A DNA stretch of 64,000 nt from Candidatus Latescibacterota bacterium (lineage in GTDB: Bacteria > Latescibacterota > UBA2968 > GCA-2709665): the NCBI GenBank assembly GCA_965219455.1, contig OZ244744.1, positions 3,067,907 to 3,131,906 on the forward strand. Direction: 5' to 3'. Below the pieces are notes generated by a model, which did not search any database, was not told the origin of the DNA, and saw nothing but the letters and a program-made list of their open reading frames with translations. Below, piece by piece: positions 47,998 through 61,523 of the stretch. Position 1 is the first letter of the stretch. Every line of letters starts with the position of its first letter. The position numbers and the translations under genes were made by a program.

Positions 47998-48756
47998 TCA
48001 CTCCACGTCCAGGATGTAGCGCGCCAGCGGCAAGAGCCGTTGCGCGGTTTCGGGCCGAAGGTACTGGCGCTGGTTCGTCTGCTGCGGGTGCTCGCGGGCG
48101 ATAAAGGCGCAGTGCAGGGTGCGGCGGGGGGCGTCGCTGAGGTTGCGATATGAGCTGTGCAAGAGGCTGCCGTTGAATACGGCGACCGAGCCGGCGCGTC
48201 CAGTTAGTTGTACTTGATCCGGATGATCGGCCAGGGGATCGGCTACGTGGTCGGCGATTCTGCCGGGTTTGCGGTGGCTGCCGGGGACGCAGCGGGTCGC
48301 GCCGTTGACCCGGGTGAAATCGTCGAGCATCCACATGGAGTTGACGACGTGGTACGGTCCGCCAGGCGCGGTGGGCTGTCCCCAATCCGCGTGCAGGCCC
48401 TGTAGCCCGCTGCCGGGCAGTGGATCGTGCCCGTTGAGCGAGTGCAGCTTGAACGGCCGCTGCAAGACGTGAAAGACCGCCGTCAGCAGCGCTGGTTGCA
48501 GGTACACGGCGTCGAAGACCGTCCCCTTGTTGACCAGGTCGGCGAGGCGGCGCACGCCGTCCATCTGGGCGACCTCAGTACCGGCTTTGTCGCCCTCGAG
48601 GGCAAAGATCGCGTCAAAGGCATGGCGCAACCCGGCCAGCCAGTCAGGCGCGATGACGCCTTCCAGAATGACGAAGCCGTTGGTGTCCAGCGCGCTGTAT
48701 TGCGCGGGCGTCAGCGACTGGGGGACGAAGCCCCTTTGCAACAATTCACTGTCCAT
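47998..48756 (-). CDS. Phytanoyl-CoA dioxygenase family oxygenase
   Basis: ATG 48756 (MDSELLQRGFVPQSLTPAQYSALDTNGFVILEGVI). GLHADW (H-x-D), RCVPGSH, distal His in LLHSSYRN. Confidence 0.8.
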   Translation of the reverse strand: MDSELLQRGFVPQSLTPAQYSALDTNGFVILEGVIAPDWLAGLRHAFDAIFALEGDKAGTEVAQMDGVRRLADLVNKGTVFDAVYLQPALLTAVFHVLQRPFKLHSLNGHDPLPGSGLQGLHADWGQPTAPGGPYHVVNSMWMLDDFTRVNGATRCVPGSHRKPGRIADHVADPLADHPDQVQLTGRAGSVAVFNGSLLHSSYRNLSDAPRRTLHCAFIAREHPQQTNQRQYLRPETAQRLLPLARYILDVE

Positions 48757-48770
48757 AGCGGATGTTCCTC

Positions 48771-49044
48771 GTGTTCTGTCACGGAAACAGATTGTCGAAA
48801 ATCGACCGACCAGAAGCAGCAAAAACAGCTATCAGCTCTCAGCCGACAGCTTGAATCAAAAACCCAATCAGTTGACGTCAGCGCCGTGACCTCTCCCCTC
48901 TGCCCCCTCTCCTAAAGGAAAGGGGGAGGGAAAACGGGCGATGGCTTGTCAAGACATTTCACCTGGATATTTTCAACCATCGAAATGTTGCCAACCATTG
49001 ACAGTTCAGCCTTCCTTCAGGAAGGGGGATAGGGGTAGGTCTCG
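48771..49044 (-). repeat. Family-A composite repeat, inverted orientation, with TIR tip
   Basis: Starts GTGTTCTGTCACGGAAACAGATTGTCGAAAATCGACCG, 15 nt upstream of the PhyH start. Continues with AGCTGA tract, CAATCAGTTGACGTCAGCGCCGTGACCTCTCCCC, CCTAAAGGAAAGGGGG and CCTTCCTTCAGGAAGGGGG. Confidence 0.7.
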
Positions 49045-49275: not shown

Positions 49276-49575
49276 ATGTACAAAGACATAATCAGTTACG
49301 AGTTGGCAGAGAATATCTCGGAGGAACATCTATTGAATGTTGCCGGTGATGTTCTGGAGAATTGGATGAGCAAACAGTCAGGATTCAAAAAGTGGGAGAT
49401 TCACCGGAATAGTGATGGAGGTTATACCGACATTGTTTACTGGGAATCAGAGGGCAACGCGAAGGATGCACAAGCAGACATGGTGAATATCCCAAACGCT
49501 ACTGATTGGTATTCTTGCTATGAGGAAGGTTCAATTTCCAGCAAGAATCTCAATCAGGTAGCAACTTTCAAATAG
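49276..49575 (+). CDS. Hypothetical small protein (possible ferredoxin-like/ABM fold)
   Basis: 99 aa, AT-richer, RBS-like AAGGGG upstream. No family recognised. Confidence 0.4.
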   Translation: MYKDIISYELAENISEEHLLNVAGDVLENWMSKQSGFKKWEIHRNSDGGYTDIVYWESEGNAKDAQADMVNIPNATDWYSCYEEGSISSKNLNQVATFK

Positions 49576-49659: not shown

Positions 49660-50430
49660 ATGCTTTCACAGGAGCAAATGGCGCAGTATGACCGGGATGG
49701 GTATGTGCTGGTGTCGGGCTTAATTCCGGAAGAGACAATCGCCAATGCGGAAGCTGCGATGTGGTCCGTACTCGGGATGGACAGGGACGATCCGGCTTCG
49801 TGGTCTCCGTTGCCGGACGATACGGATGGGGTGACAACAACCGTCAGCCAGGGGGTGATTGAACATTTCGGGGTTCAGGATCCCGCGTTGCTGGCTTGTT
49901 GTACTCCCGCATTCTACGATGTGCAGAGCCAACTGGCCCGGGAAAATGCAGGCGCATTTCACTGTCAGAAACCACAGCCTGAGGCCGTGTGGGCACGCAG
50001 TGTATTTCCGGTTTCGAAAGGCTGGGACTATCACAATGGGCATGCCGATGGTGGACATCGGTCCTTCAATGTCTTTCCCGGGTCATTCCGCGTATCTTCC
50101 CTGACCTATCTCGATTCCGGTGTTGCGCAGGGCGGTGGTACCGCGGTCTGGCCAGGGGCCCACCGGAAACTCAGCGAGGCGGCGGTGCGTGACCCTGGCC
50201 GGTATCGAATGCTGTCGGATTTAAAGAACCCGCAGCAGAGGTTCGATCTGGGAGAGCCTGTTGAGCTGACGCCTTCCCGGGGAGACGTACTGTTTTTTCA
50301 TTATCTTTTGGTGCACGCCGGATCTCTCAACACAAGCAACAAACCGCGTTTCGCCCTCCGGTGGATGTGCGCCTGCGACACCTGCCGCATCTGGGAAAAA
50401 TACGGCAAGTGGAATATCTGGATGCCGTGA
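49660..50430 (+). CDS. Phytanoyl-CoA dioxygenase family oxygenase
   Basis: MLSQEQMAQYDRDGYVLVSGLI start, RBS AGGAG upstream, GHADGG (H-x-D), AVWPGAH, distal His in LVHAGSLN. Confidence 0.8.
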   Translation: MLSQEQMAQYDRDGYVLVSGLIPEETIANAEAAMWSVLGMDRDDPASWSPLPDDTDGVTTTVSQGVIEHFGVQDPALLACCTPAFYDVQSQLARENAGAFHCQKPQPEAVWARSVFPVSKGWDYHNGHADGGHRSFNVFPGSFRVSSLTYLDSGVAQGGGTAVWPGAHRKLSEAAVRDPGRYRMLSDLKNPQQRFDLGEPVELTPSRGDVLFFHYLLVHAGSLNTSNKPRFALRWMCACDTCRIWEKYGKWNIWMP

Positions 50431-50559
50431 TGGTGGCGTATGGACTAGGTGCAATGTTTCTGGGAACGTCCCGGAGCGGCCTCGGTATAGTGCTTAGTTG
50501 CATTATTTCCTGTCAAAACCTATAATGGGGGCATTCCATTCCCCGTGAGCCCAATCTAG

Positions 50560-50840
50560 TTGACGGAAGAAGAACGCACCACGCTGTCGCAGCGGACGCG
50601 GCCGGGTCCACCCAGGCGGTATGTCGTGGAAAGCGAGCGGCGCCTCATCGACTTGGTGTCCCAGCCGGCGCCTTGCTGGCGGAAACTACCCGCCGGTGTT
50701 GGTCCATTACGTGTGGAGCGTGTTGCGTCAGCATAGCATCCTTATGCGGCGACGACGGTCCCGTGAAGGGAGCGCCCATCTTGAGTTTTCGGCCAAGACC
50801 GCCGATTTCGTTGGGATTGTACCTTCGAGCACCAAGTGAC
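50560..50840 (+). pseudogene. Frameshifted relic of an IS630-like transposase N-terminal (HTH) region
   Basis: LTEEERTTLSQRTRPGPPRRYVVESERRLIDL, then in another frame VHYVWSVLRQHSILMRRRRS...FSAKTADFVGIV, reminiscent of LS.EER..L / vS.stV.RiL..h.LkPhr / DP.F..K..dIvglY. Weak. Confidence 0.25.
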
Positions 50841-50881
50841 GTCTCTTTCTCGGACGAATCAACCGAAGGAGAAAAATCACA

Positions 50882-52405
50882 TTGGCATCATACGATTGGA
50901 TCGACCTTGAGGCCATTGAAGGCTACGACCGTCTCATCCAAGTGCTTGACCCGGAATTCGATCCGAAGGGAATTGCAGAGAGACTCAGGTCTCAAGTCAC
51001 CGATGCTGCCAAAGGCGTGCTTGTGGAGCACGGGTACGTCGACAAGGACTATCGGAGTACGTTCTATAACTTCTATGCGAAGATGGGCCGTCAGTACCGA
51101 ACCGATTGCGTCCGACTGCATTTCTTTGACGGTTTCGTTCAATATAAGGAAACCCAAACTGACATCACCTGCAGCGACGGCCGTCTGCAAGACCATTACT
51201 ACGGATACATCGTGTTGAGACCAACGATCGTCGCCACTTTGGGGCGATCCGTGCTCTCTCCAGACATTCGTTTAGGCGCGCGCGGCAGAGCGATCCAGTC
51301 CCTACACCACGTCAACCTGCTTGGTCATCGACTCCCCGTATGGGGTTTCCCGTCGATGGCTCAGCATGTTGACATCGCGGTCTGCGCTCATGTGTCGTGC
51401 TGGGCCATTCTCCGATATTACAGTGAGACATATTCGCGACATAGGGAGTATCTCGTCCACGACGTAACAAAGCTCGTCGCCCCGTTCGACCCTGGCGGAT
51501 TGGTGCCGTCACTTGGCTTCAATGTCTTGGAAGCTGAACGTGTATTTCAGGCGGCTGGCTGTTTCCCGGTGCTCGTCGGCAAGCGTAATTCCTCTTCCGA
51601 TGGGGCGTTTTTCTCCCAGTTGCTTGCCTATCTCGAATCGGGTTTCCCGTTGTTCGTTGCCATGCCCAGCGAGACCCACGCCGTAGTCATCGTCGGCCAC
51701 AATTGGAAGCAAACCGCAATACCACGGCAGGCTTCGTCATCGCATGTCTGGACGCAAGTTGAAACACTGCTGACCGTAGACGACAACCTGCTTCCCTACG
51801 CTACCGTTCCGCTGTACTCGCCCGGAACTCAAGCCGGACAGCCGTCGTATTCCGCCGACTCGTTCGACGCGTTTATCGTTGCACTGCCTGACAAAATCTA
51901 CTACCCCGCCGATGCTATAGACGCCTTGAGCCAGCGGGTCGAGGGATCCTTGGCGCGCGCGCGCGGACCAAGCCAGGAGCCGCTCGAGTTACGGCGTTAT
52001 TTCATCACGACGGTCTCCAATCTTCGTGAGCACGCAAGCAACCACCGTACGAATCTCGGCGACGGCCTCGTCGGTCTATTGATGCATCTAGACACGGCTA
52101 AATTCGTGTGGGTTGTCGAGTACTGCAGTGTCGCGCAATGGCAAGCCGGGCACGTTGCCGCAAGGGCGATCGTAGACGCTACCGCTAGTCCAACGGACAA
52201 AGTGCCGATCTGGTTGCTACATGATGAGGAAGTGGCGCACGTCTTCGATCGGACGTCGGCAGAGATGAACCCCACGTCCATCCGCCTCAGTCGCACTAAC
52301 CTCGGACTTCTACCACGGATCGAGCTCAATCTGCGCCCGGTCCACGAATCACCGGCATCCACGAGTACGAGCGGAGGAGCCGCAGAAACTGGAGGAGACG
52401 AATGA
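50882..52405 (+). CDS. Papain-fold (C39-like) cysteine peptidase domain protein with uncharacterised N- and C-terminal regions
   Basis: Q-x7-C block MAQHVDIAVCAHVSCWAILRYY. His block SETHAVVIVGHNW followed by LLTVDDNLLPY, giving a Gln/Cys/His/Asp order as in C39-type peptidases. 507 aa. Confidence 0.5.
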   Translation: MASYDWIDLEAIEGYDRLIQVLDPEFDPKGIAERLRSQVTDAAKGVLVEHGYVDKDYRSTFYNFYAKMGRQYRTDCVRLHFFDGFVQYKETQTDITCSDGRLQDHYYGYIVLRPTIVATLGRSVLSPDIRLGARGRAIQSLHHVNLLGHRLPVWGFPSMAQHVDIAVCAHVSCWAILRYYSETYSRHREYLVHDVTKLVAPFDPGGLVPSLGFNVLEAERVFQAAGCFPVLVGKRNSSSDGAFFSQLLAYLESGFPLFVAMPSETHAVVIVGHNWKQTAIPRQASSSHVWTQVETLLTVDDNLLPYATVPLYSPGTQAGQPSYSADSFDAFIVALPDKIYYPADAIDALSQRVEGSLARARGPSQEPLELRRYFITTVSNLREHASNHRTNLGDGLVGLLMHLDTAKFVWVVEYCSVAQWQAGHVAARAIVDATASPTDKVPIWLLHDEEVAHVFDRTSAEMNPTSIRLSRTNLGLLPRIELNLRPVHESPASTSTSGGAAETGGDE

Positions 52406-52602
52406 ACCAAAAGCTCAAGGACTACTTGGGGAAATTCAGCCCGGCAACAGAGGACCAAACCATGCTCGATGACTTGCGCCAAGAGATGGAACAAGCCGTC
52501 CCGGAGATCGCTAAGAGCATCCGAGAGCGTGAGGAATTGGCTGCCGAATTACGAATTGCCGCATCAAAGCCGTCTCAGTCCGACAAGGACAAGCAGGATT
52601 AG
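52402..52602 (+). CDS. Small acidic helical protein, translationally coupled to the peptidase gene
   Basis: ATGA stop/start overlap at 52402-52405. 66 aa, predicted helical, Lys/Asp-rich tail. No family recognised. Confidence 0.4.
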   Translation: MNQKLKDYLGKFSPATEDQTMLDDLRQEMEQAVPEIAKSIREREELAAELRIAASKPSQSDKDKQD

Positions 52603-52958
52603 GGATCTGACGACGGACGCTTAAGCCTCTCGTACGCTGTAGTGATGATGGCCTCCAACGCATCGGCGCCGTGCTCATCGAGGTTCGGGTCTGCACGGAG
52701 CAACCTCGACACCATGGCAACCGGTTCAGCGTCGTTCTTCGGTGCGGCCGTGAAATCCACGGGGTTGAGGCCCGACCACGCGCAAAGCGCCGTTAGGCTG
52801 GCGGCATCCGGTTGCCGCCCCTTCGACATCCTGGACAACGTCGACTGCGAGACACCTGTCTGCTCGCTTACCGCCTTCCAACTGATATCACGGGCCGTCA
52901 CGGTAGCGCTTAGTGCCTTGTAGAAAGCTTTAAAGTCGAAGTTCAGACGCTGGGTCAT
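52599..52958 (-). CDS. XRE-family helix-turn-helix transcriptional regulator
   Basis: ISWKAVSEQTGVSQSTLSRMSKGRQPDAASLTALCAWSGLNP is a Cro/C1-type HTH. 119 aa. Lies 94 nt downstream of the JAB-E1 gene on the same strand. Confidence 0.75.
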   Translation of the reverse strand: MTQRLNFDFKAFYKALSATVTARDISWKAVSEQTGVSQSTLSRMSKGRQPDAASLTALCAWSGLNPVDFTAAPKNDAEPVAMVSRLLRADPNLDEHGADALEAIITTAYERLKRPSSDP

Positions 52959-53052
52959 TATTGGCTGTTTCCCTTATGGTCGCAGGCCGGATGATGGCAC
53001 ACTCTCGATTGATCCAGCCCCGAACGATTGACGGAGCCCCTTGGATACCACG

Positions 53053-54420
53053 TTATCCCTCCACTACCGGAAGTTCGAGCGCGTCACCCATGGCCAATCT
53101 GTGGACGCATTCCCTACATTCCGGATCACGACGCGGAATTACGCGTTGCGCCTTGCCGCGATGAAAATGGAAGTGCTGATAGGCTGCTTCTACTTCACCG
53201 GTTCGGAGCCCCAGGAAGTCGAATAGGAAGTCATTGACCGCATGTGCAGCAGCGACAGCGTTCAAGGTAATCACGCTAGGGTTGGCTTCCTGAACTCCGT
53301 AGGCCTGTTCCTTGCGTTCCCTGTCCGACTTCGCCTCGATCGCCAGCTGCGTCGGATCAATCAGTCCGTTGCACCAAAGGCAGCCGGTGCCTGGCCTGAT
53401 ATGTCGCACCGCACACATGGCATCTTCGAGCTTGCCGCGATACCCTCGCCGTATCTTTGCACCCATTTGAATCGTAGGAATGAGATACTGGTGGGCAAGA
53501 GCATTGACGACGAGCCGGGCTCGCATGGAGTCTGCGGCCAGGAAGATGAAGTCACAATCGCGCAGAATCTGGGCGACGGACTGACGCGAAACGTCGGCGG
53601 CGACCGGATGCATCGTAGCATCAATCGCCATCTCGCGTGCGTGACGAATCGCGATCTGGGTTTTGAGTTGGCACGTTTCGACGTCAACGCGGGTCGCGCC
53701 AACCACACGAGAAAGGTTGCTGCTCTCAATCTCATCCGGATCGATGAGTACGAGGTTCCCGACCCCAAGTCGCGCAAGGTATTCCGCCACTAATGAACCA
53801 ACACCGCCGAGCCCAATGACAGCTACCTTGCTCGCTTTCAGGATCTGCTGTCCAGCCGCGCCGAACATACGTACTTGGCGATCATGCTCGCCGTTCGACC
53901 CACGCGCTCGGCGGGGTTTGGTGTAAAGCCTCGTAATCTCGTCTCCGACGATACGATAGGTCCCGAGAGATCGACGGCCGCCATCCGGCAGCCAGATATC
54001 GGCGGCGACCGAGCGTCGGCCATACACAAGTGCGCCAATCGGGACTCCGCGGCCAATGTCGAGGAGCGCGGGATAACCGCGCTCGTGGGATTCAATATCG
54101 ACGCGGCTGAAATCGACACGCCGACTGCTTCCGTGATTGTGGACAGCAAGGTAGGCTAAGCCCGAGTCCCGGCACTGGAGGATCTCGCGGTGAATGAAGG
54201 TTGGAGACAGCGCTCGGTAGCCGTATTGGCCCGCGACGTAGTCCGTTCCAAACTCCGCCGGCTGAACATGCTGCACCAACAGGCGCATGTAAGACCCGTT
54301 GCGCACGACGCCGGCGCGCAGGATTGCACCGTACTCGTCCCGGTCGCCGGGAAATAGGTGCTCCATGATTCGCTGGTGATTCTCGGAAGTCACCAGGATG
54401 TCGCAAGATTCCCGCGTCAT
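53053..54420 (-). CDS. JAB (JAMM) metallopeptidase fused to ThiF/E1-like adenylating enzyme
   Basis: ATG 54420. JAMM elements DEYGAIL and HNHGSSRRVDFSRVD. E1 Rossmann VAVIGLGGVGSLVAEYLARLGVGNLVLIDPDEIESSNLSRV. FLAADSMRAR. CxxC pairs GCLWCNG and ECRECVH. Confidence 0.85.
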   Translation of the reverse strand: MTRESCDILVTSENHQRIMEHLFPGDRDEYGAILRAGVVRNGSYMRLLVQHVQPAEFGTDYVAGQYGYRALSPTFIHREILQCRDSGLAYLAVHNHGSSRRVDFSRVDIESHERGYPALLDIGRGVPIGALVYGRRSVAADIWLPDGGRRSLGTYRIVGDEITRLYTKPRRARGSNGEHDRQVRMFGAAGQQILKASKVAVIGLGGVGSLVAEYLARLGVGNLVLIDPDEIESSNLSRVVGATRVDVETCQLKTQIAIRHAREMAIDATMHPVAADVSRQSVAQILRDCDFIFLAADSMRARLVVNALAHQYLIPTIQMGAKIRRGYRGKLEDAMCAVRHIRPGTGCLWCNGLIDPTQLAIEAKSDRERKEQAYGVQEANPSVITLNAVAAAHAVNDFLFDFLGLRTGEVEAAYQHFHFHRGKAQRVIPRRDPECRECVHRLAMGDALELPVVEG

Positions 54421-54803
54421 CGGAGTTCCTCCAGGAAATGCAGTACTTTGACGAACTTGGCCACCGCCGTCTGAGGGTAGTTTTGAGTTTGATTGTTGCG
54501 CCTGGAAACCTGTAGGGCGGGTCGGTCGAAGAATTGGGCACCGGCAGTAACGGGCGGCTCGAAGGCCACGCCGTCCAAGCGACACACGTTGTCGCCGATG
54601 AACATTGGGTAAATGTCGGCGTATGGATAGAGTGGCGAGATATGGCCCCCTAGCCATGTGGACGAAGGATTATATCGTTCCCCAATGTTGACGGGTTCGA
54701 CGACAACGTATGCGCCCCCGCTCCCGTCCTCCCGACTGCTTACATCCGAAGTCGGAAACGCCCGCTTCAGTTCCTCGATCGCGCTAGCGGCATCCTGCTT
54801 CAC
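54417..54803 (-). CDS. Prokaryotic E2 (UBC-fold)-like protein, family-E type
   Basis: GTG start 21 nt after the Ubl stop. The stop overlaps the JAB-E1 start (ATGA). ISPLYPYADIYPMFI flap-like motif, single Cys in DNVCRLDG, QVSRRNN. Operon context with Ubl and E1. Confidence 0.5.
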   Translation of the reverse strand: MKQDAASAIEELKRAFPTSDVSSREDGSGGAYVVVEPVNIGERYNPSSTWLGGHISPLYPYADIYPMFIGDNVCRLDGVAFEPPVTAGAQFFDRPALQVSRRNNQTQNYPQTAVAKFVKVLHFLEELR

Positions 54804-54824
54804 GGTGTGTCCTAACTGATACGG

Positions 54825-55094
54825 TCAGCTGTTATCGTCCGCAGCGATGGCGGTGAAGGCTAGGTGTTCGGTCAACAGAACTTTGTCGTCGTTTCCGATC
54901 ACCTTGCTCGATCCGTTCGGCAGTTGGACCTGCAGCACGAAGTTCAGCTGAATGTTGACATCCTGCTTGATGGCGGCCTCCTTAATCTCAAGTCCCGTCG
55001 CTGGTCCGGCAGGCATCGCGACCTTGTGGTCGTTGACTTCAATGGTAACGGTCTTGAGGCGAATGTCCTCTACCACAGCGTCTTTAGCTGTCAT
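54825..55094 (-). CDS. Ubiquitin-like beta-grasp protein (Multiubiquitin-family-like, single domain)
   Basis: ATG 55094 with AAGGAGAG upstream. TVTIEVNDHKVAMPAGPATGLEIKEAAIKQDVNIQLNFVLQVQLPNGSSKVIGNDDKVLLTEHLAFTAIAADDNS. First gene of the E2/E1 operon. Confidence 0.55.
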   Translation of the reverse strand: MTAKDAVVEDIRLKTVTIEVNDHKVAMPAGPATGLEIKEAAIKQDVNIQLNFVLQVQLPNGSSKVIGNDDKVLLTEHLAFTAIAADDNS

Positions 55095-55161
55095 TTCTCT
55101 CTCCTTATGAAGATGGGTGTATGTTTGTAATAGAAATATAATCATTGCTCATTTGAAAGTC

Positions 55162-55179
55162 AATTGCTTTTTAGCAATT
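55162..55179. promoter_or_regulatory. Candidate operator palindrome upstream of the Ubl operon
   Basis: AATTGCT-TTTT-AGCAATT (7-bp arms), 68-85 nt upstream of the Ubl ATG, in an AT-rich 230-bp intergenic region. A further ATTGCT half-site lies at 55144-55149. Confidence 0.25.
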
Positions 55180-55379
55180 TTTTCCGGTGATGAAAATCAG
55201 CCATGTAGATGTTCACTTACCATACCACGGCCTTGAGGGTTTGCAGCGCCCAACCTGACGGATCAACCCTACGTGTCAATTAAGTATTAGACGACTTCCC
55301 GTGAGAGTTTGTTGTCGAATATTGGGCGTACTCCCATTTAGCCAGAATCCCGATCTCGGCCATCAGCGCGCGACCGCAC

Positions 55380-56258
55380 CTACCCCTTTGCTTCCATGAA
55401 CGCCTCGTACAACGCCAGGGGCTGCGCCATCGATTCATCGATTTCGGTGACGGCGAACCTTACCTCCACGGTCCGTTCATCGCCAACGCGGAAATCGTCC
55501 CCGAACAGCGAGAGGTAGAGGGGGTTCTGATCCCTGAACGGATCCTTCATGTTCTCACTCTCGTACCCGCTGATCACCGCGTAACAATCCTGGGGCCTGG
55601 ACATCAGTACGCCCGCAATGCCCTTTTCCAGGTTCGCGCTCATGATCACCGGCAATTCAAAATACCGTTGCGGATTCCACTGGTAGAGGCCCCAGATTCG
55701 GTCCCATCGCCCGTCGGTGGACCGCCGGGCCGCGTGTTGATCCCTCGAGAATACCAGTCCCGTTCCCACAAATACGTCGTTCACTGCCGGCGCTATCCAT
55801 CGCGCCTGGTCTGCCGGGATATCGAACGGACTGCCCTGAACGTACACGTACGGCCGCAGCGACAGATCGAAATAGTTCGACAGGAACACTTCATAAGCCG
55901 GGTACGGCCAGTTGGACGCCACGGTTATCGACAGATCCACCGCGTTCGGTTCCACAACTTCGTACCTGGCCGTCATCTCCGCCTTGTGATCGTCCGTTGG
56001 CGCCCAGTGCACGTCGATCGCATTGCCGTCGGATGTAATGGTGCGCTCGTTCTCACGAGCCTGCCCCATACAGTGATTCTGTGAAAACATGAAAAACAGA
56101 TTCAGGAGGTCGTACTTCGGATGCACCACCTGCTCCCCGGTGGGCTTATGGGTCAACGCCTTGATCCCATGCCGGTCCCCGTCCGGCTGTATGTGTCCCG
56201 TCATCTCCTCAGTCTCAAAGTGCCACACGTCCCGTTCGGCATCGTGTCTCAACGCCAT
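55380..56258 (-). CDS. Hypothetical protein
   Basis: 292-aa ORF with coding-like composition, upstream of and co-oriented with the glycoside-hydrolase-like gene. No family recognised. Confidence 0.5.
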   Translation of the reverse strand: MALRHDAERDVWHFETEEMTGHIQPDGDRHGIKALTHKPTGEQVVHPKYDLLNLFFMFSQNHCMGQARENERTITSDGNAIDVHWAPTDDHKAEMTARYEVVEPNAVDLSITVASNWPYPAYEVFLSNYFDLSLRPYVYVQGSPFDIPADQARWIAPAVNDVFVGTGLVFSRDQHAARRSTDGRWDRIWGLYQWNPQRYFELPVIMSANLEKGIAGVLMSRPQDCYAVISGYESENMKDPFRDQNPLYLSLFGDDFRVGDERTVEVRFAVTEIDESMAQPLALYEAFMEAKG

Positions 56259-56310: not shown

Positions 56311-58845
56311 TCACCTGATTTCAAGACATCTCGAAAACCCATACGGATGCATCGGTAACAGCGCACCCGGCATCGGCGGTCTATCCTGGACAATCGTCTG
56401 CCTGGCGGGCGCCTCGTATCCCGTGATCCAGGCTTTTACCGTCAGTTCTTCGAGGTCGTCGCCCGTAATATCCACCGTTACGGACGACCATCCGCTGTCG
56501 TGAATGGCGAAGAGATAGTCATCTCTTTCTCTGGGACCCACGGGAGGCAGAAACCTGGACGTGCCGTGGTCGCTGCGATCCTGCCGGTGGATGCGTTGGG
56601 TCACGTACGAGTAACGAGCGGGCACACCCCGGTACCGCGATCCGCCGGCGCGGACGTCCACGCTGTCCAGCACCTTCTCCGGCCCGGTCAGGACAACCTG
56701 CAGTTCGGGGTGCTCGAACCGGTGGGAAACCGCAACGTACCATTGCATCCTGTGCATCCCGTCGTTCAGGTCGTCGCACGTTGCCTCGGCGGAGAGACCG
56801 GGAATCTGCATATCCGGATGCACCACCGGCCCCACGTCGTCCGTGAGTCGCCGGTCCCCTGGAAACCGGTATTCACACCCGCCATCGCATAGCCGCGCCA
56901 TGAACGGCGCGCCGGGTATCGGAGAGACGTCCTCCTGCTTGTCGGCGAAGATCTTCAGCAGCCGTACTTCGTTCCCCAACACCGTCACCGACCCTTCCAG
57001 GTCCTGCCAGAAAGGATAAACCTGTCGGATGGCGCCCGGCACATATCCCAACCCGTAATCCACGCGAAGGTCCACAGCCTGCGGCTCGACGGACGGATTT
57101 CGCAGCATGAGCCACGCGCTTCCGTCCGACGGATGCAGGAAACCATAGACTTCGCCGAAGGCCGGACTCCCCAGCACCATTTGCGTTCCCTTCGTGCCCA
57201 GTTGGTCCGCGTTGAACCGCATCCAGTCCATCATTGACTGAAGCTGTTCCGCGCGATCGGCCCTCAAACTTTCGGGATTTATCGGCATCGGCATATAGGT
57301 GGTGCCACGGCAGGCCGCCAACACGAGGTTGTCCAGCCACGTATGGTCCGGGTCTGCAAACGCGTTGGTCAATGCCTGCACGAATTCGTGATTGTCGTAC
57401 GCGTCGAAAAAGATGGGCGTTTCCGCCCGGCGCATGATCTGATAGTAAACCGCGTCCCGATGCGTCAGGGCCCGGTCGCGCTGGGTGCGAGACGGCCACG
57501 ACGCATACTCACAATCTCCCGAATGCACCAGCCACGTGTGGTTCGCCAGGCACAACCACCACGGGCTCGGCCACCACCCGTTCCGTGTCACCAGGTCCGG
57601 ATTGATCGCCCGCAGCCGGCGGTCGATCCGATTGAACGCGTTTACCGAAGCCTCACGCATGTGCTCGGGTGTGGGGAAACGGTCCCGGAAATCGGGATGG
57701 GTGGCGCACTCGTTGTCCCAATCGATTTTCAAGTGCACGGCTCCCACGTCTCTCACCAGCCGCTCCCAGCGCTGAGCCAGGGCCTCTTCGAAGGACGGCT
57801 GCGCCATGACCACGAACGTTCCGCTTCCATAGGAGCCGGGACCCTCGCCGACCCGCCATCCCTGTTCCTGGATCCAATCGGTGTCAAAACCCACGGGGCC
57901 GTTGTGGGTCACCCACAATGCCAGCGAGAACCCCTTTTGTTTCAGGTCTTCGGAAAACGCGATAAGCCGTGAGTCATTCTCGTCGTCTCCCTTATGCCGG
58001 TAGATGGACTTCCGGTCGAACCACCCCGCGTCAAACGCCAGGGAATCCGGCTTCAGGCCTAGGTCCGATACCGCCTCTGCATAGGCCTGATTCATCTCGA
58101 ACGAGTCGATATACTCCCGGTTTCCGAGATACCGCACGGACCATCCGACGGAAAGATGGAAAATAGGCTTTGAAAGCCGGGGCAGGCGGATCTGCCACAG
58201 ATAGTCCATAAACGCGTCTCGCACGGTCTCGTGACTTTCTGCCGCGCCGTAGACCGCCGTGTAGCTCTCGATGCGTCGCTCTTTGTCCCATACAGGGTGG
58301 TGGATGAGTTCCAGCCTTTCTCCGGGAACGGCAAACCCCACCGGATGCTCCAGACCGGCGAACCAGTCACCGGCCCAGACCGGATACCCGCACCCCGGTA
58401 CCGGGGGGGCGTACGAGTCGAGCCCGGTCTGTTCTTCTGCGTCGGGCCCGCCGCGGACGCCGTATCCGACCCGCCGAATCGGCCGCGGAGGTTGGTCCTG
58501 TAGGTCCACCCAGAGCCGGTCCGGCGTCGGCGCGCTTGGACTGTCCGGCGCCTGAAGCTTCAATTGCTTCCTGAACCAGGGATTGTCTCCATCGATCCAG
58601 TACCGCACCCGGACCCGAATGCCGGTCGCTTCGTGCCGATAGTCGAACCCCACCTCATCCGTACCGGACTGCATACCGGTCCGGATAAAGCGGTCGGCAG
58701 GAATCTCCACGTCTCCCAGACGGATCATGAATGCCGGAAAGTCAAACGAGCGGCGCGTGCCCGAAAGCCGATTCTCCACCTGCAGATCCCCACCCTCCCA
58801 TTTCAGACAAAGGGCGCTGTTTTGTAGCATGCACTGATCGGTCAC
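56311..58845 (-). CDS. Putative glycoside hydrolase (clan GH-D, alpha-galactosidase/GH36-like TIM barrel)
   Basis: LAFDAGWFDRKSIYRHKGDDEND (compare DDGWF), GFSLALWVTHNG, VHLKIDWDNE (compare K-W-D-x-N nucleophile block). 844 aa. Confidence 0.45.
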   Translation of the reverse strand: MTDQCMLQNSALCLKWEGGDLQVENRLSGTRRSFDFPAFMIRLGDVEIPADRFIRTGMQSGTDEVGFDYRHEATGIRVRVRYWIDGDNPWFRKQLKLQAPDSPSAPTPDRLWVDLQDQPPRPIRRVGYGVRGGPDAEEQTGLDSYAPPVPGCGYPVWAGDWFAGLEHPVGFAVPGERLELIHHPVWDKERRIESYTAVYGAAESHETVRDAFMDYLWQIRLPRLSKPIFHLSVGWSVRYLGNREYIDSFEMNQAYAEAVSDLGLKPDSLAFDAGWFDRKSIYRHKGDDENDSRLIAFSEDLKQKGFSLALWVTHNGPVGFDTDWIQEQGWRVGEGPGSYGSGTFVVMAQPSFEEALAQRWERLVRDVGAVHLKIDWDNECATHPDFRDRFPTPEHMREASVNAFNRIDRRLRAINPDLVTRNGWWPSPWWLCLANHTWLVHSGDCEYASWPSRTQRDRALTHRDAVYYQIMRRAETPIFFDAYDNHEFVQALTNAFADPDHTWLDNLVLAACRGTTYMPMPINPESLRADRAEQLQSMMDWMRFNADQLGTKGTQMVLGSPAFGEVYGFLHPSDGSAWLMLRNPSVEPQAVDLRVDYGLGYVPGAIRQVYPFWQDLEGSVTVLGNEVRLLKIFADKQEDVSPIPGAPFMARLCDGGCEYRFPGDRRLTDDVGPVVHPDMQIPGLSAEATCDDLNDGMHRMQWYVAVSHRFEHPELQVVLTGPEKVLDSVDVRAGGSRYRGVPARYSYVTQRIHRQDRSDHGTSRFLPPVGPRERDDYLFAIHDSGWSSVTVDITGDDLEELTVKAWITGYEAPARQTIVQDRPPMPGALLPMHPYGFSRCLEIR

Positions 58846-59105: not shown

Positions 59106-61523
59106 TCACTTTCCGAGTCGTATGGTCTGCCCGGCGTCGACCGCCCGCTCCTCGCCCTCATCTTCACCGCTTGCGAATTCGACCATCAGGTTATCCGTAT
59201 CGTTATTCGTTAAATAGATTGCGCCATCGGGCACGGCATCCACCCGTATGTCGCCCTTTACGCGCAGCGTATGCGATACTCCAAGCATGCAGGCGCTCTC
59301 ACTGTTGAGCGGCACGTCATATCGTACAGTGTCTCCAGTCGCATCCACCGCGGCGCCGGCATAAACGTGGATTTCCTCCCGGCGGGTATGCGTAAACTGA
59401 CACACCCTGCGCTCGGTGTCGAAATTGGCTGCAGCCAGGTAGCCGTCCGCAACCACGCAGGCGCTCTGTTCCGGTCCGGTCAGGACGTTGAGGCGACTTG
59501 AAGCCGTGTCGTCGTGGGCCTGCTCGGGAATCAGCAACGCCGCCAGGGATCCGCCTTCCTCACCCGCCCGCAACGCCCTTTCTTTCCCCTGACGCGAGAG
59601 CGTGAGATCATCCGCGATGGCGCGATACGGTTTGTAATAGTGCCGATTGAGATAAACCGCGTCGCCCGTTCCCGAAAATACAATGCCCAGCCGGTCGTCA
59701 ATATTCAGCCAATCGGGCTTGACGATGCGATCCTCGATATCGTCCTCCTCGCGATCGCCGAGCCAGCCTCTGTAGTCGGTTGACCCGTCGGGGCGATACA
59801 GTGTGCGGACCCCTCTGCAGTTCGGCTTGAGTAACGGGAAATGTTCATTGGTGATCCGCAGGAACCCCTGGTCGAGCGATTCCACCGTCAGATCTTCCAT
59901 GGCGGTGAACCGCTCGAAGGACAGTGCCCGTCCATCCGGCAGACTGGCGAACAAAACCTGCTGCCGCAGTGACTCCTGGCACCGGTCCATGACCATCGCG
60001 GCGGCGAATCCGTCGTCATAGTCGGTCACCCGCACCCGCTTCAGTCGATGGCTGTCCGGCCGTCCCTTCACCACCGGCCTGCCCAGCCAGCTATCCGAAC
60101 AGGGCGCGATCGTATAGATTCCCTCTCTCGTGAGCGGCATCGCCATCACGGAATTCCGCCAGGAAAAGGAAGTCTGCCCTTTGGGATGCCGGTGATGGAC
60201 GAAACCCGCGTGCGGGTATTCCCGCACGCCTGCCAATCGCCGTTCCAGTTCATCTTCCGGGGTGGGTTTCGGGCCGGGACCGAACAAGCGGTGAAAAAGA
60301 TACTGGTGCGCGATGGCGCCGATGGTGACTTCCCGCATAATCATCGGATCCTGCTGGTCGTGCGCCCTCATGGAGAATTCCCTGTCGTACATCCGACCCC
60401 CGTTTCCATCCTGCCGCAGTTCCGTGTTCCGGAGTCCTCTGCGCAGCAGCGCGGCGGCGTCCGGGTCGTCAAAAAATACAGCCGCCGCGGAATGCGGGGT
60501 CTCGCTTCCCGTGGACGGCAGATAGTGCCAGTCCATCCCCTGCACGGCCTGGGCATATCCGGACCCGTCGGTCATCGCCTTAAGGTTCTCATACACCCTG
60601 CGGCGGTTCCAGAACACCTCCGGCGGCAGTTCCCGTCCCCACAGCTTCAATTGTGCTCCCGCCGAGGTGAGCGGCCGAACGCCCGACGCGGTGTAGTTCG
60701 GATGCACCATCCCGTGGTTTTCCGCCCAGTAATCCGGCAGCGCCGTAAACGTCTTTCCTGCAAGCGCCCCCGCCGTGGCGCCGTTCAACTTTCCGCGGTC
60801 CTTCGCGTCCTGGGGCGCCGCACAGGTGGAATACATCCACCGCCTGCACGTGGCCTCCCACTGAGCCGCACTTTCGTGGCGTTCCAGAAACAGGAAGCAC
60901 GACGTCAATCCGTTGGACGTCCAGGCATTCTCTTCCATCTGCGTGTCGACGTAGATCCCGCTCTTCGGCGCCATATCCCCGAACCTGCCGGCATAGTCCG
61001 CGTGGACACGAGCCATCATCATCCAGGTTTCATCGTCCACCCGGTCCCGCAGCAACAGGCAGACGCGCCCCATGGCCGAGATCCCGTGGCCGCACTGGCT
61101 TTCCTTGAAGAACCCCAGCCCTCGTTCCCCCCACTTGGTTCCGCAGATCTCCGGCCGGCCCATTCCCACGCTGGGCCGCACGCAATCCGCCGGCCCGGAG
61201 TCGTGTGTGAAACAAAGATAGCGCAATCCCATAATGGCCATGCGCTGAAGGTCGTCCCGGGATACGCCAACCCCTTTCTCATCGTACTCCGGCGAGACGC
61301 TGGCCAGGGCGAATGTCTCCACGGGCGGCGCCGTCTCGTTTCCGTACCAGTGGCACCCGCCGAAAAAATGCCCGCAATCCGGCCTGTCCGGCCATTCCTG
61401 AAAATACTCGATGCCCACCGGAATCCATTTCTCGATCATCCGCAGGTAGCGGCGGCTCAATTCATTCTCCTCCGCCGGCAAGAACGGCGCCTTCAATTCC
61501 GTAGTGTCTGTCATCTGCGTCAT
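59106..61523 (-). CDS. Large hypothetical protein (possible polysaccharide-active enzyme)
   Basis: 805-aa ORF lying between a GH-like gene and a heparinase-family gene. No motif recognised with confidence. Confidence 0.45.
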   Translation of the reverse strand: MTQMTDTTELKAPFLPAEENELSRRYLRMIEKWIPVGIEYFQEWPDRPDCGHFFGGCHWYGNETAPPVETFALASVSPEYDEKGVGVSRDDLQRMAIMGLRYLCFTHDSGPADCVRPSVGMGRPEICGTKWGERGLGFFKESQCGHGISAMGRVCLLLRDRVDDETWMMMARVHADYAGRFGDMAPKSGIYVDTQMEENAWTSNGLTSCFLFLERHESAAQWEATCRRWMYSTCAAPQDAKDRGKLNGATAGALAGKTFTALPDYWAENHGMVHPNYTASGVRPLTSAGAQLKLWGRELPPEVFWNRRRVYENLKAMTDGSGYAQAVQGMDWHYLPSTGSETPHSAAAVFFDDPDAAALLRRGLRNTELRQDGNGGRMYDREFSMRAHDQQDPMIMREVTIGAIAHQYLFHRLFGPGPKPTPEDELERRLAGVREYPHAGFVHHRHPKGQTSFSWRNSVMAMPLTREGIYTIAPCSDSWLGRPVVKGRPDSHRLKRVRVTDYDDGFAAAMVMDRCQESLRQQVLFASLPDGRALSFERFTAMEDLTVESLDQGFLRITNEHFPLLKPNCRGVRTLYRPDGSTDYRGWLGDREEDDIEDRIVKPDWLNIDDRLGIVFSGTGDAVYLNRHYYKPYRAIADDLTLSRQGKERALRAGEEGGSLAALLIPEQAHDDTASSRLNVLTGPEQSACVVADGYLAAANFDTERRVCQFTHTRREEIHVYAGAAVDATGDTVRYDVPLNSESACMLGVSHTLRVKGDIRVDAVPDGAIYLTNNDTDNLMVEFASGEDEGEERAVDAGQTIRLGK

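Follow-up and report, generated by a model that had tools for sequence, protein, structure and literature searches.

Does a cluster of three tightly packed genes in a Candidatus Latescibacterota genome encode a ubiquitin-like (Ubl) conjugation pathway and, if so, how does this pathway relate to those already described in bacteria? The genes lie in a stretch of 64,000 nucleotides (GenBank assembly GCA_965219455.1, contig OZ244744.1, positions 3,067,907 to 3,131,906 of the forward strand), which we refer to as the window and in which coordinates are given. An original prediction, made from the sequence alone, had read them as an operon for a beta-grasp Ubl, a protein resembling the ubiquitin-conjugating (E2) family E, and a fusion of a JAB domain to a ubiquitin-activating (E1) domain (JAB-E1). 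Our analysis extends this operon to six genes, and we think it rather probable that they form a self-contained, mobile, and repressor-controlled Ubl-conjugation cassette, a sister variant to the Bub (6E) pathway.

Operons of this kind were predicted in 2006 as type '6e', composed of a poly-Ubl, a Cys-less E2/RWD-like domain, a JAB-E1 fusion, and a small metal-binding protein (PMC1779556), and their biochemistry was worked out in 2024 under the new name Bub (bioRxiv 10.1101/2024.11.21.623953). In Bub, the JAB domain cuts the BubAB fusion after Gly229 and the E1 domain adenylates the Ubl, which is relayed as an oxyester on Tyr370 of the E1 crossover loop and then on Ser333 of the E2 (bioRxiv 10.1101/2024.11.21.623953). 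The pathway also includes BubE, a DUF6527 Ser-His protease, and occurs as Type I (BubAB, BubCD, and BubE) and Type II (BubA, BubBD, and BubE) (bioRxiv 10.1101/2024.11.21.623953). The claim that the architecture is known only from comparative genomics was thus overtaken by the biochemistry of 2024, and stands in so far as no substrate or phenotype is known. The core genes in the window are the following:

55094 to 54825, minus strand: Ubl gene, 89 amino acids, ATG start, with AAGGAGAG 6-13 nucleotides upstream.
54803 to 54417, minus strand: E2-like gene, 128 amino acids, GTG start, 21 nucleotides past the Ubl stop codon.
54420 to 53053, minus strand: JAB-E1 gene, 455 amino acids, its ATG overlapping the TGA of the E2-like gene as ATGA (54417-54420); JAB domain at approximately residues 1-165 and E1 adenylation domain at approximately residues 180-455.

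The original prediction had placed these three open reading frames (ORFs) exactly where we find them, and all the motifs it quoted are present. By scanning one genome per species we obtained 34 loci with the E2-like gene, the full ones numbering 32 (L001-L032). The Ubl, E2-like, and JAB-E1 genes occur together in these 32 other loci, as had been expected of a conserved neighbourhood, with 54-95% amino acid identity, and pairwise ratios of nonsynonymous to synonymous substitution (dN/dS) lie between 0.07 and 0.2 for five cassette genes; purifying selection on the cassette is strong. Because of this co-occurrence and these ratios, the trio consists of real genes and not of chance ORFs. Residues 16-84 of the Ubl match the Pfam family Multi_ubiq (PF14452) with 29.4 bits, above the gathering cut-off of 24.5, and the E1 half of the fusion matches the Pfam family ThiF at 8e-40.

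The unit that is conserved around the trio is larger than the three-gene operon first proposed, which has to be revised accordingly. Three further genes accompany it, one for a helix-turn-helix (HTH) protein and two that we call p66 and p507, and all six genes are present in 30/30 loci with enough flanking sequence. Over the whole set of related loci with sufficient flank, approximately 40 and some of them on conjugative elements, the trio keeps these three neighbours. In the window, the additional genes are:

52958 to 52599, minus strand: HTH gene, 119 amino acids, XRE-type, matching Pfam HTH_26 and HTH_3, with a conserved C-terminal helix.
52402 to 52602, plus strand: p66, 66 amino acids, charged, its start overlapping the p507 stop codon (ATGA).
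50882 to 52405, plus strand: p507, 507 amino acids, three domains.

The six genes occur in two arrangements. In the one found in the window, the series Ubl, E2-like, JAB-E1, and HTH is convergent with p66 and p507, and in the other p507 and p66 are convergent with the HTH gene, which is itself divergent from the Ubl operon. The block made of p507, p66, and the oppositely oriented HTH gene is constant in both. Homologues of p507 that are 42-48% identical to that of the window have neighbourhoods that are again the same cassette, and p66 is found downstream of p507 in every cassette locus, L029-L031 among them, and carries the motif [VI]PEI...R[ER].LAAE.R. Searches of Pfam, NCBIfam, PADLOC, and PHROGs gave no family match for p66.

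The JAB-E1 fusion, when searched against the PDB with phmmer, found its best match in Citrobacter BubCD (9ea4), to which its residues 8-400 align with an E-value of 5.8e-29 over both the JAMM and the adenylation domains. The JAMM residues E29, H94, H96, S105, and D108 are invariant among the 34 sequences, which agrees with the intact JAMM site proposed before, and so are R238 and the glycine loop of the adenylation domain. The crossover loop contains a further invariant residue:

53299-53301, minus strand: codon of E1 Tyr374, in the crossover loop.

Tyr374 aligns exactly with Y370 of BubCD and is present in 34/34 sequences. The two CxxC pairs that had been noticed in the E1 domain (C347 and C350, C435 and C438) are real and invariant, and no other Cys is conserved; C336 varies and is a Cys in 15 of the 34 sequences. 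By their position the two pairs correspond to the structural zinc site known from enzymes of the MoeB/ThiF type. Citrobacter BubCD lacks this four-Cys site, and the E1 domain also matches MoeB, ThiF, and MccB. In the locus of Bradyrhizobium sp. GM24.11 (L043, 12054-13428), gene calling split JAB-E1 into two ORFs (84 and 368 amino acids), possibly a frameshift or a pseudogene.

The E2-like protein was traced through its family. None of its 419 close homologues has a Pfam match. An exhaustive search with hidden Markov models (HMMs) yielded 235 representative clusters, several of which consist of 1-3 Multi_ubiq domains fused to a C-terminal E2-like domain, the architecture of BubAB; these fused forms occur only in more distant relatives of the cassette. 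Prok-E2_E is matched by 25 of 73 members of the broad E2-like family, with 1.4e-9 as the best E-value, and a Bradyrhizobium copy that is 55% identical to the window protein reaches 18.3 bits, below the gathering threshold of 25 bits. The window protein itself does not match Prok-E2_E (PF14462) even at E=10. The resemblance to E2 family E that had been proposed thus holds for relatives of the protein and reaches the protein itself only transitively. The profile of the E2-like family had Citrobacter BubB as its top PDB match (E 0.07), and a profile-profile alignment with BubB by hhalign gave a probability of 92% and an E-value of approximately 5e-7; a narrow profile of the E2-like protein found nothing useful among PDB sequences. 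With homology to BubCD and BubB in hand, the assignment of the operon to the Multiubiquitin/Prok-E2_E-like/JAB-E1-fusion (6E) kind is upheld.

The E2-like protein carries the motif YPxADxYP. Across the 73 sequences of the broad family, only P60, Y65, P66, and S100 are invariant, and R101 is nearly so; Ser100-Arg101 is invariant among the 34 cassette sequences. Ser100, the sole invariant polar residue of the family, is the candidate nucleophile:

54504-54506, minus strand: codon of E2-like Ser100, candidate nucleophile, followed by Arg101.

The window protein reads LQVS100-R-R at this place and BubB reads QRWS333-R-H335, from which we infer that Ser100 is the equivalent of BubB S333. The crystal structure of BubB is a diverged ubiquitin-conjugating (UBC) fold (bioRxiv 10.1101/2024.11.21.623953), and by its homology to BubB the E2-like protein would have a UBC fold as well. 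Two clade-specific features of the protein were also seen. After the conserved Asp, the wider family mostly reads YPH[FY], and in the cassette clade the position is taken by Met or Leu (residue 67, 54603-54605). The cassette clade also has a near-invariant His54 (GGH; 54642-54644), which may be a relocated active-site residue.

The original prediction had singled out the one Cys of the E2-like protein (C74, in DNVCRLDG), and this residue, together with C336 near the crossover loop and the CxxC pairs of E1, could suggest a classical thioester cascade in which C74 or an E1 Cys carries the Ubl. However, C74 is a Cys in only 5/34 cassette copies, with Arg in 18, Ser in 6, and Gln, Gly, Asn, and Ala also seen. 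Since it varies, C74 cannot be catalytic, and it was rejected in favour of Ser100 as the invariant candidate. The inconstancy of C336 argues in the same direction, and the only invariant Cys residues of E1 are the pairs typical of a structural zinc site. We therefore consider a thioester cascade extremely improbable. Instead, the catalytic signature of the cassette fits that of Bub, with a Tyr and a Ser: because Tyr374 and Ser100 are invariant and no catalytic Cys is conserved, an oxyester relay as in Bub is the likely chemistry.

What the relay would carry is defined by the end of the Ubl. The Ubl of the cassette is a single beta-grasp protein that ends in FTAIA[AP]DDNS followed by the stop codon in 31 of the 32 full loci and in DDDS in the remaining one:

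54828-54830, minus strand: codon of Ubl Ser89, the final residue of the DDNS tail.

The Ubl and the E2-like protein are encoded by separate ORFs in 32/32 cassette loci. As the stop codon always directly follows the Ser, Ser89 is most likely the mature C-terminus. The DDNS end is also present in plasmid-borne relatives from Rhizobium, Mycolicibacterium, Nostoc, and Bradyrhizobium, and in fused relatives it sits at the junction between Ubl and E2. The Ubl profile weakly matches BubA of E. coli ZDHYS365 (9cd2, E 0.006), and a PDB sequence search with the Ubl gave nothing useful. In three loci (L027, L043, and L044) the Ubl contains two beta-grasp repeats (163-175 amino acids where the gene was called), and DDNS ends the last repeat only. 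A short remnant of a Ubl/E2-like junction in a Spirochaetia contig (L034, OZ253572.1, 5951-6063), from a genome that also has a full cassette (L014), looks like a decayed second copy.

A tail that ends in Asn-Ser rather than in Gly-Gly also raises the question of whether any protein tag is conjugated at all. The E2-like protein could be a dead RWD-like adaptor and the E1 could adenylate the tail for sulphur transfer or for MccB-like chemistry, which would suit the zinc site of the MoeB/ThiF type that BubCD does not have and the matches to MoeB, ThiF, and MccB. The E2-like domains of type 6e were moreover predicted to be inactive by Iyer et al. 2006 (PMC1779556). However, BubB was found to be active through its Ser (bioRxiv 10.1101/2024.11.21.623953), the corresponding Ser-Arg motif and the crossover-loop Tyr are invariant in the cassette, and sulphur carriers need Gly-Gly. 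The conserved cassette also lacks a rhodanese domain and any sulphur-transfer or biosynthetic gene, and its repressor control, mobile setting, and conflict-gene neighbours (HicAB, SIR2_2, and NTase-conflict; see below) fit a conflict or stress system. We consider this explanation improbable and retain conjugation of the Ubl by an oxyester relay as the preferred one.

Control of the cassette is suggested by its promoter region, in which two elements overlap:

55163 to 55135, minus strand: sigma-70-like promoter, TTGACT-17-TATATT, approximately 40 nucleotides upstream of the Ubl start.
55163 to 55178: perfect palindrome ATTGC-N6-GCAAT, putative operator of the HTH protein over the -35 box.

The promoter matches in 10/12 positions, and nothing else in 50300-55500 resembles one; related loci preserve both TTGACA and the spacing. 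The palindrome (ATTGCTAAAAAGCAAT) overlaps the -35 box, and the 64 kb window holds no second perfect match to ATTGC-N6-GCAAT. Its counterpart in other genomes, TTGY-N6-GCAATTGA, is found once per locus, approximately 60-85 bp upstream of the Ubl start, in 31/42 loci across phyla, in each of these fused to TTGAC at the same place. One of the loci bearing it is a fused-type relative, whose HTH protein is 40% identical to that of the window, and loci with a divergent HTH gene have two copies in the intergenic region shared by the HTH gene and the Ubl operon. This pattern is that of an autoregulated repressor, and we regard the HTH protein as the putative repressor of the cassette and the palindrome as its putative binding site. 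No operator was found upstream of p507, a region that is not conserved, and no conserved element was found in the spacer between JAB-E1 and the HTH gene. Single GCAA[CT] half-sites recur in many loci in the region corresponding to 55100-55160 of the window, where they lie between -35 and -10, after -10, and at the ribosome-binding site (AGGAGCAA), and may be extra repressor contacts.

How such a repressor would be removed brings in p507, which has approximately 980 homologues, all annotated as hypothetical. In 79 sequences its invariant residues are Q161, C168, H170, W174, H266, D300, and D301, of which several may form an active site:

51383-51385, plus strand: codon of p507 C168, candidate active site together with Q161, H266, and D300/D301.

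An AlphaFold2 model built from the 79-sequence alignment reached a predicted local distance difference test (pLDDT) score of 83 and a predicted TM-score (pTM) of 0.87. In a Foldseek search of the PDB, the central part of the model (approximately 160-335) matched the phytochelatin-synthase-like Alr0975, staphopains, the ZUFSP/Mug105 deubiquitinases, and the C39 domains of ComA/PCAT1, with probabilities of 0.96-1.0, target-normalised TM-scores of at most 0.71, and E-values from 3e-3 to 6e-2. The motif Q161-x6-C168-A-H-x2-C-W-x2-L-R-x-Y-S resembles the C39 catalytic helix, and Pfam Peptidase_C39_2 matched p507 weakly, below threshold. Judged by its model, the centre of p507 is a papain/C39-like cysteine peptidase domain of predicted activity. 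The domains on both sides (1-160 and 340-490) are strongly conserved and match nothing; a p507 profile gave nothing useful against PDB sequences, and a Foldseek search of viral models (BFVD) was uninformative.

The distribution of p507 was compared with that of 2 other proteins, the BubE protease of Bub and the M78 (ImmA/IrrE) metallopeptidase that is encoded beside the HTH gene in sister systems. An HTH protein paired with an M78 protein is the CapH/CapP arrangement, which controls about a third of Bub operons (bioRxiv 10.1101/2024.11.21.623953). BubE is missing from the cassette: no neighbour matches DUF6527 in Pfam, the CxCxC...S...CxxH motif does not occur in the six frames of the window, and tblastn with Citrobacter braakii BubE against the window and 47 loci gave a best E-value of 1.1, compared with 1e-74 in the control locus. 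Sister trios, in which the Ubl, E2-like, and JAB-E1 genes are likewise unfused, are found on plasmids of Rhizobium ruizarguesonis, Mycolicibacterium chubuense NBB4, and Nostoc linckia, with the annotations 'multiubiquitin domain-containing protein', 'hypothetical protein', and 'ThiF family adenylyltransferase'; we came across no paper in which they are described as a system. These trios, and that of L040, pair their HTH gene with an M78 gene and lack p507, and so does a fused-type relative beside an integrase. The loci with p507, on the other hand, have no M78 gene beside the HTH gene. Since BubE is missing both with and without p507, the presence of p507 tracks the absence of the M78 partner and not that of BubE. 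This is why we favour p507 and p66 as a signal-sensing protease module, and the role of p507 as a repressor-removing protease is the one favoured by gene context. The idea that p507 replaces BubE was downgraded, as the entire DDNS-type clade is without BubE regardless of p507.

A different role of p507 nevertheless has to be weighed, that of the second peptidase of the pathway, either as a deconjugase (a stand-in for BubE, possibly specific for the DDNS linkage) or as an effector or toxin that is turned on by Ubl conjugation and that p66 inhibits or chaperones. In every context examined, down to 42% identity, p507 was seen only beside this Ubl trio, which fits a deconjugase, an effector, or a target, and differs from regulators of the CapH/CapP type, which accompany many systems. 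The ZUFSP/Mug105 deubiquitinases and staphopains among its structural neighbours suit this role. Inhibitors of staphopains, the staphostatins, are co-transcribed downstream of the protease gene, and p66 is translationally coupled to p507 as would suit an inhibitor of this kind. Canonical Bub, furthermore, always has a second peptidase, BubE, which the cassette lacks. The size of p507, which exceeds that of CapP by far, and the orientation of its gene, convergent with the HTH gene and not co-operonic with it, speak against a regulator. Against it, BubE is equally absent from the DDNS-type sister trios that have no p507, p507 and the ImmA/M78 partner of the HTH protein are mutually exclusive, and the block of p507, p66, and HTH stays together while the trio changes place. 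The Foldseek matches are, in addition, generic for the papain fold, with no E-value better than 3e-3. We regard a deconjugase or effector as rather unlikely, though well worth keeping in mind, and continue with p507 as the sensor that acts on the repressor.

The cassette is widely distributed. Its hosts belong to more than 8 phyla and comprise Gemmatimonadota, Latescibacterota, Acidobacteriota, Chloroflexota, Spirochaetia, Alpha- and Gammaproteobacteria, Verrucomicrobiota, and Binatia; many are metagenome-assembled genomes from sponges or soil, and cultured sources include Bradyrhizobium sp. GM24.11 and Novosphingobium olei TW-4, the copy of which is cut at the contig end. Synonymous divergence (dS) between copies of different phyla is only 0.6-1.9, which points to horizontal transfer. 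Two cassettes (L043 and L044) lie amid genes of conjugative elements or plasmids, with ParAB and a relaxase at one of them and TraG, ArdC, and RepB at the other, other cassettes adjoin HicAB and insertion sequence (IS) elements, and the cassette of the window has a G+C content slightly below that of its flanks.

Several neighbours were recorded in these settings. The L043 cassette stands between ParA/ParB/relaxase genes and a gene with a SIR2_2 domain, followed by an ORF of 912 amino acids. In L036 (5898-9260), an MTTB-family gene beside the cassette is split by DUF6788 and UPF0236-like genes in 1/4 near-identical contigs, which points to recent mobile-element activity beside the cassette. Next to the sister trio on plasmid p4 of R. 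ruizarguesonis (L045), a protein matching PF20697, 'Pol beta NTase in conflict systems' (6e-35), and an N-6 DNA methylase are encoded at 866-2428 and 1-466, respectively, suggesting a conflict-island setting. A fused-type relative in L039 (3123-6231) is followed by ORFs of 108 and 339 amino acids, a dCTP-deaminase/dUTPase-like ORF of 211 amino acids, and an ORF of 281 amino acids, which may be an accessory or effector set.

Around the cassette of the window, four ORFs have no Pfam match and do not belong to the cassette in other phyla:

55380-56258, minus strand: ORF of 292 amino acids.
56311-58845, minus strand: ORF of 844 amino acids.
59106-61523, minus strand: ORF of 805 amino acids.
49276-49575, plus strand: ORF of 99 amino acids.

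Synteny with L001 holds for the 292-, 844-, and 99-amino-acid genes, and synteny with L002 for the first two of them. The 99-amino-acid ORF lies within a stretch of low G+C content (0.48-0.49, approximately 48.8-49.8 kb) that is bordered by two genes of the PhyH type (phytanoyl-CoA dioxygenase family):

47998-48822, minus strand: PhyH-type gene.
49660-50430, plus strand: PhyH-type gene.

From these results we propose the following mechanism. Before induction, the XRE-type HTH protein, as a probable dimer, would bind ATTGC-N6-GCAAT over the -35 box and so keep the genes for the Ubl, the E2-like protein, JAB-E1, and the HTH protein itself off. The p507/p66 pair would be a clade-specific module in place of an ImmA/IrrE (CapP-like) metallopeptidase, and p507 would most likely sense a stress or infection signal and inactivate the repressor. 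After induction, the E1 would adenylate the C-terminus of the Ubl, Ser89 of the DDNS tail, and the Ubl would pass as an oxyester from Tyr374 to Ser100 of the E2-like protein and then to an amino group of a target protein. That Ser is the activated residue of the Ubl is what the position of the stop codon would imply. Although there is no Ubl fusion to release, the JAMM site is intact, and it would most likely remove the Ubl from targets or trim its tail. Our best guess for the biological role, judging from regulation and context, is conflict with phages or mobile elements.

Some observations do not favour this proposal. At the level of families, the Ubl and the E1 half gave the profile matches that had been anticipated, while the E2-like protein and the JAB half gave no direct match in Pfam (even at E=10), NCBIfam, PADLOC, or PHROGs, and none of the models of PADLOC fits the cassette. 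Both aligners place Ser100 of the E2-like protein one column off BubB S333. There is no His at +2, where BubB has H335 and where the cassette has Arg or a variable residue, and no clear counterpart of D299. The AlphaFold2 model of the E2-like protein, from an alignment of 22 sequences of at least 75% identity, has a pLDDT of 38, too low to show a UBC fold directly. Ser89 of the Ubl is equated with Gly229 of BubA by position alone, and hhalign of the Ubl profile against the Citrobacter-type BubA's third beta-grasp domain gave a probability of 0.4%; because the profiles do not match, Ser89 and Gly229 cannot be called equivalent at the level of residues. To our knowledge there is no precedent for a C-terminal Ser as an E1 substrate. 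The likeness of the HTH protein to the ImmA-paired HTH protein of Rhizobium is confined to the HTH motif; it has no BLAST similarity to the HTH protein of L040, and its profile found generic XRE matches in the PDB, none of them specific to CapH. When viral contigs were scanned for the E2-like protein, no relative turned up. Finally, canonical Bub has shown no phage-defence phenotype and no natural substrate of it is known (PMC13373217).

Bacterial Ubl pathways are a current route to the origins of eukaryotic ubiquitination and to its use in genetic conflict, and the cassette adds to this picture in several ways. Bub showed that a Ubl can be transferred on oxyesters, and the cassette keeps this catalytic signature without three traits by which Bub is defined, the Ubl-E2 fusion, the C-terminal Gly, and BubE. 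If Ser89 is activated, E1 chemistry would not need a C-terminal Gly as strictly as has been assumed. The strict linkage of p507 offers a concrete handle on what Bub-type systems sense and do. Finally, the cassette is small (approximately 4.3 kb), has a promoter, an operator, and a repressor of its own, and is almost the same in different phyla, which makes it convenient to transplant into a model host.

Compared with known systems, the cassette shares many parts with Type I Bub (6E.1; Citrobacter, PDB 9ea4 and 9eae). Both have a JAB-E1 fusion homologous over its two domains, a Tyr in the E1 crossover loop, a BubB-type E2-like protein in which Ser-Arg is invariant and no Cys is conserved, a beta-grasp Ubl of the Multi_ubiq family, the gene order Ubl, E2, and JAB-E1, control by a neighbouring repressor, and residence in mobile elements. 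In contrast to Type I Bub, the Ubl and E2 of the cassette are unfused, separated by a stop codon and a 21-nucleotide spacer, the Ubl ends in DDNS whereas the Ubl part of the control C. braakii BubAB ends in DVNNG229, the E2-like protein has no His at +2, the E1 has a four-Cys zinc site, and p507, p66, and a dedicated HTH protein are added. Type II Bub (6E.2) shares with the cassette a stand-alone Ubl and a Tyr and a Ser that replace the catalytic Cys; it differs in that its E1 is fused to the E2, where that of the cassette is fused to JAB, and in having BubE. Being unfused, BubE-less, and Ser-ended, the cassette is, by the type definitions, outside the Bub types defined so far. We put forward as a tentative possibility that it represents a third Bub-like type, in which a Ser-activated (or Asn-Ser) tag is carried on Tyr/Ser oxyesters and a p507/p66 sensor, as the cysteine-protease equivalent of CapP/ImmA, destroys the repressor. 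The sister trios resemble the cassette in their unfused genes (33-47% identity), DDNS end, lack of BubE, and repressor beside the operon, but they pair the HTH protein with an M78/ImmA metallopeptidase and have neither p507 nor p66. The Bil system (BilABCD) follows the same logic of Ubl, E2, JAB, and E1, with a phage protein as its proven target, but uses Cys thioesters, a separate JAB protein, an E1 of IAD-AAD-CYS architecture, and an ISG15-like Ubl that ends in Gly. Lastly, the regulators of CBASS, Bil, and Bub, CapH and CapP, likewise combine a promoter-bound repressor with an adjacent protease gene; unlike CapP, p507 is a 507-amino-acid predicted cysteine peptidase with two further domains, is encoded convergently with the HTH gene, and has a 66-amino-acid partner.

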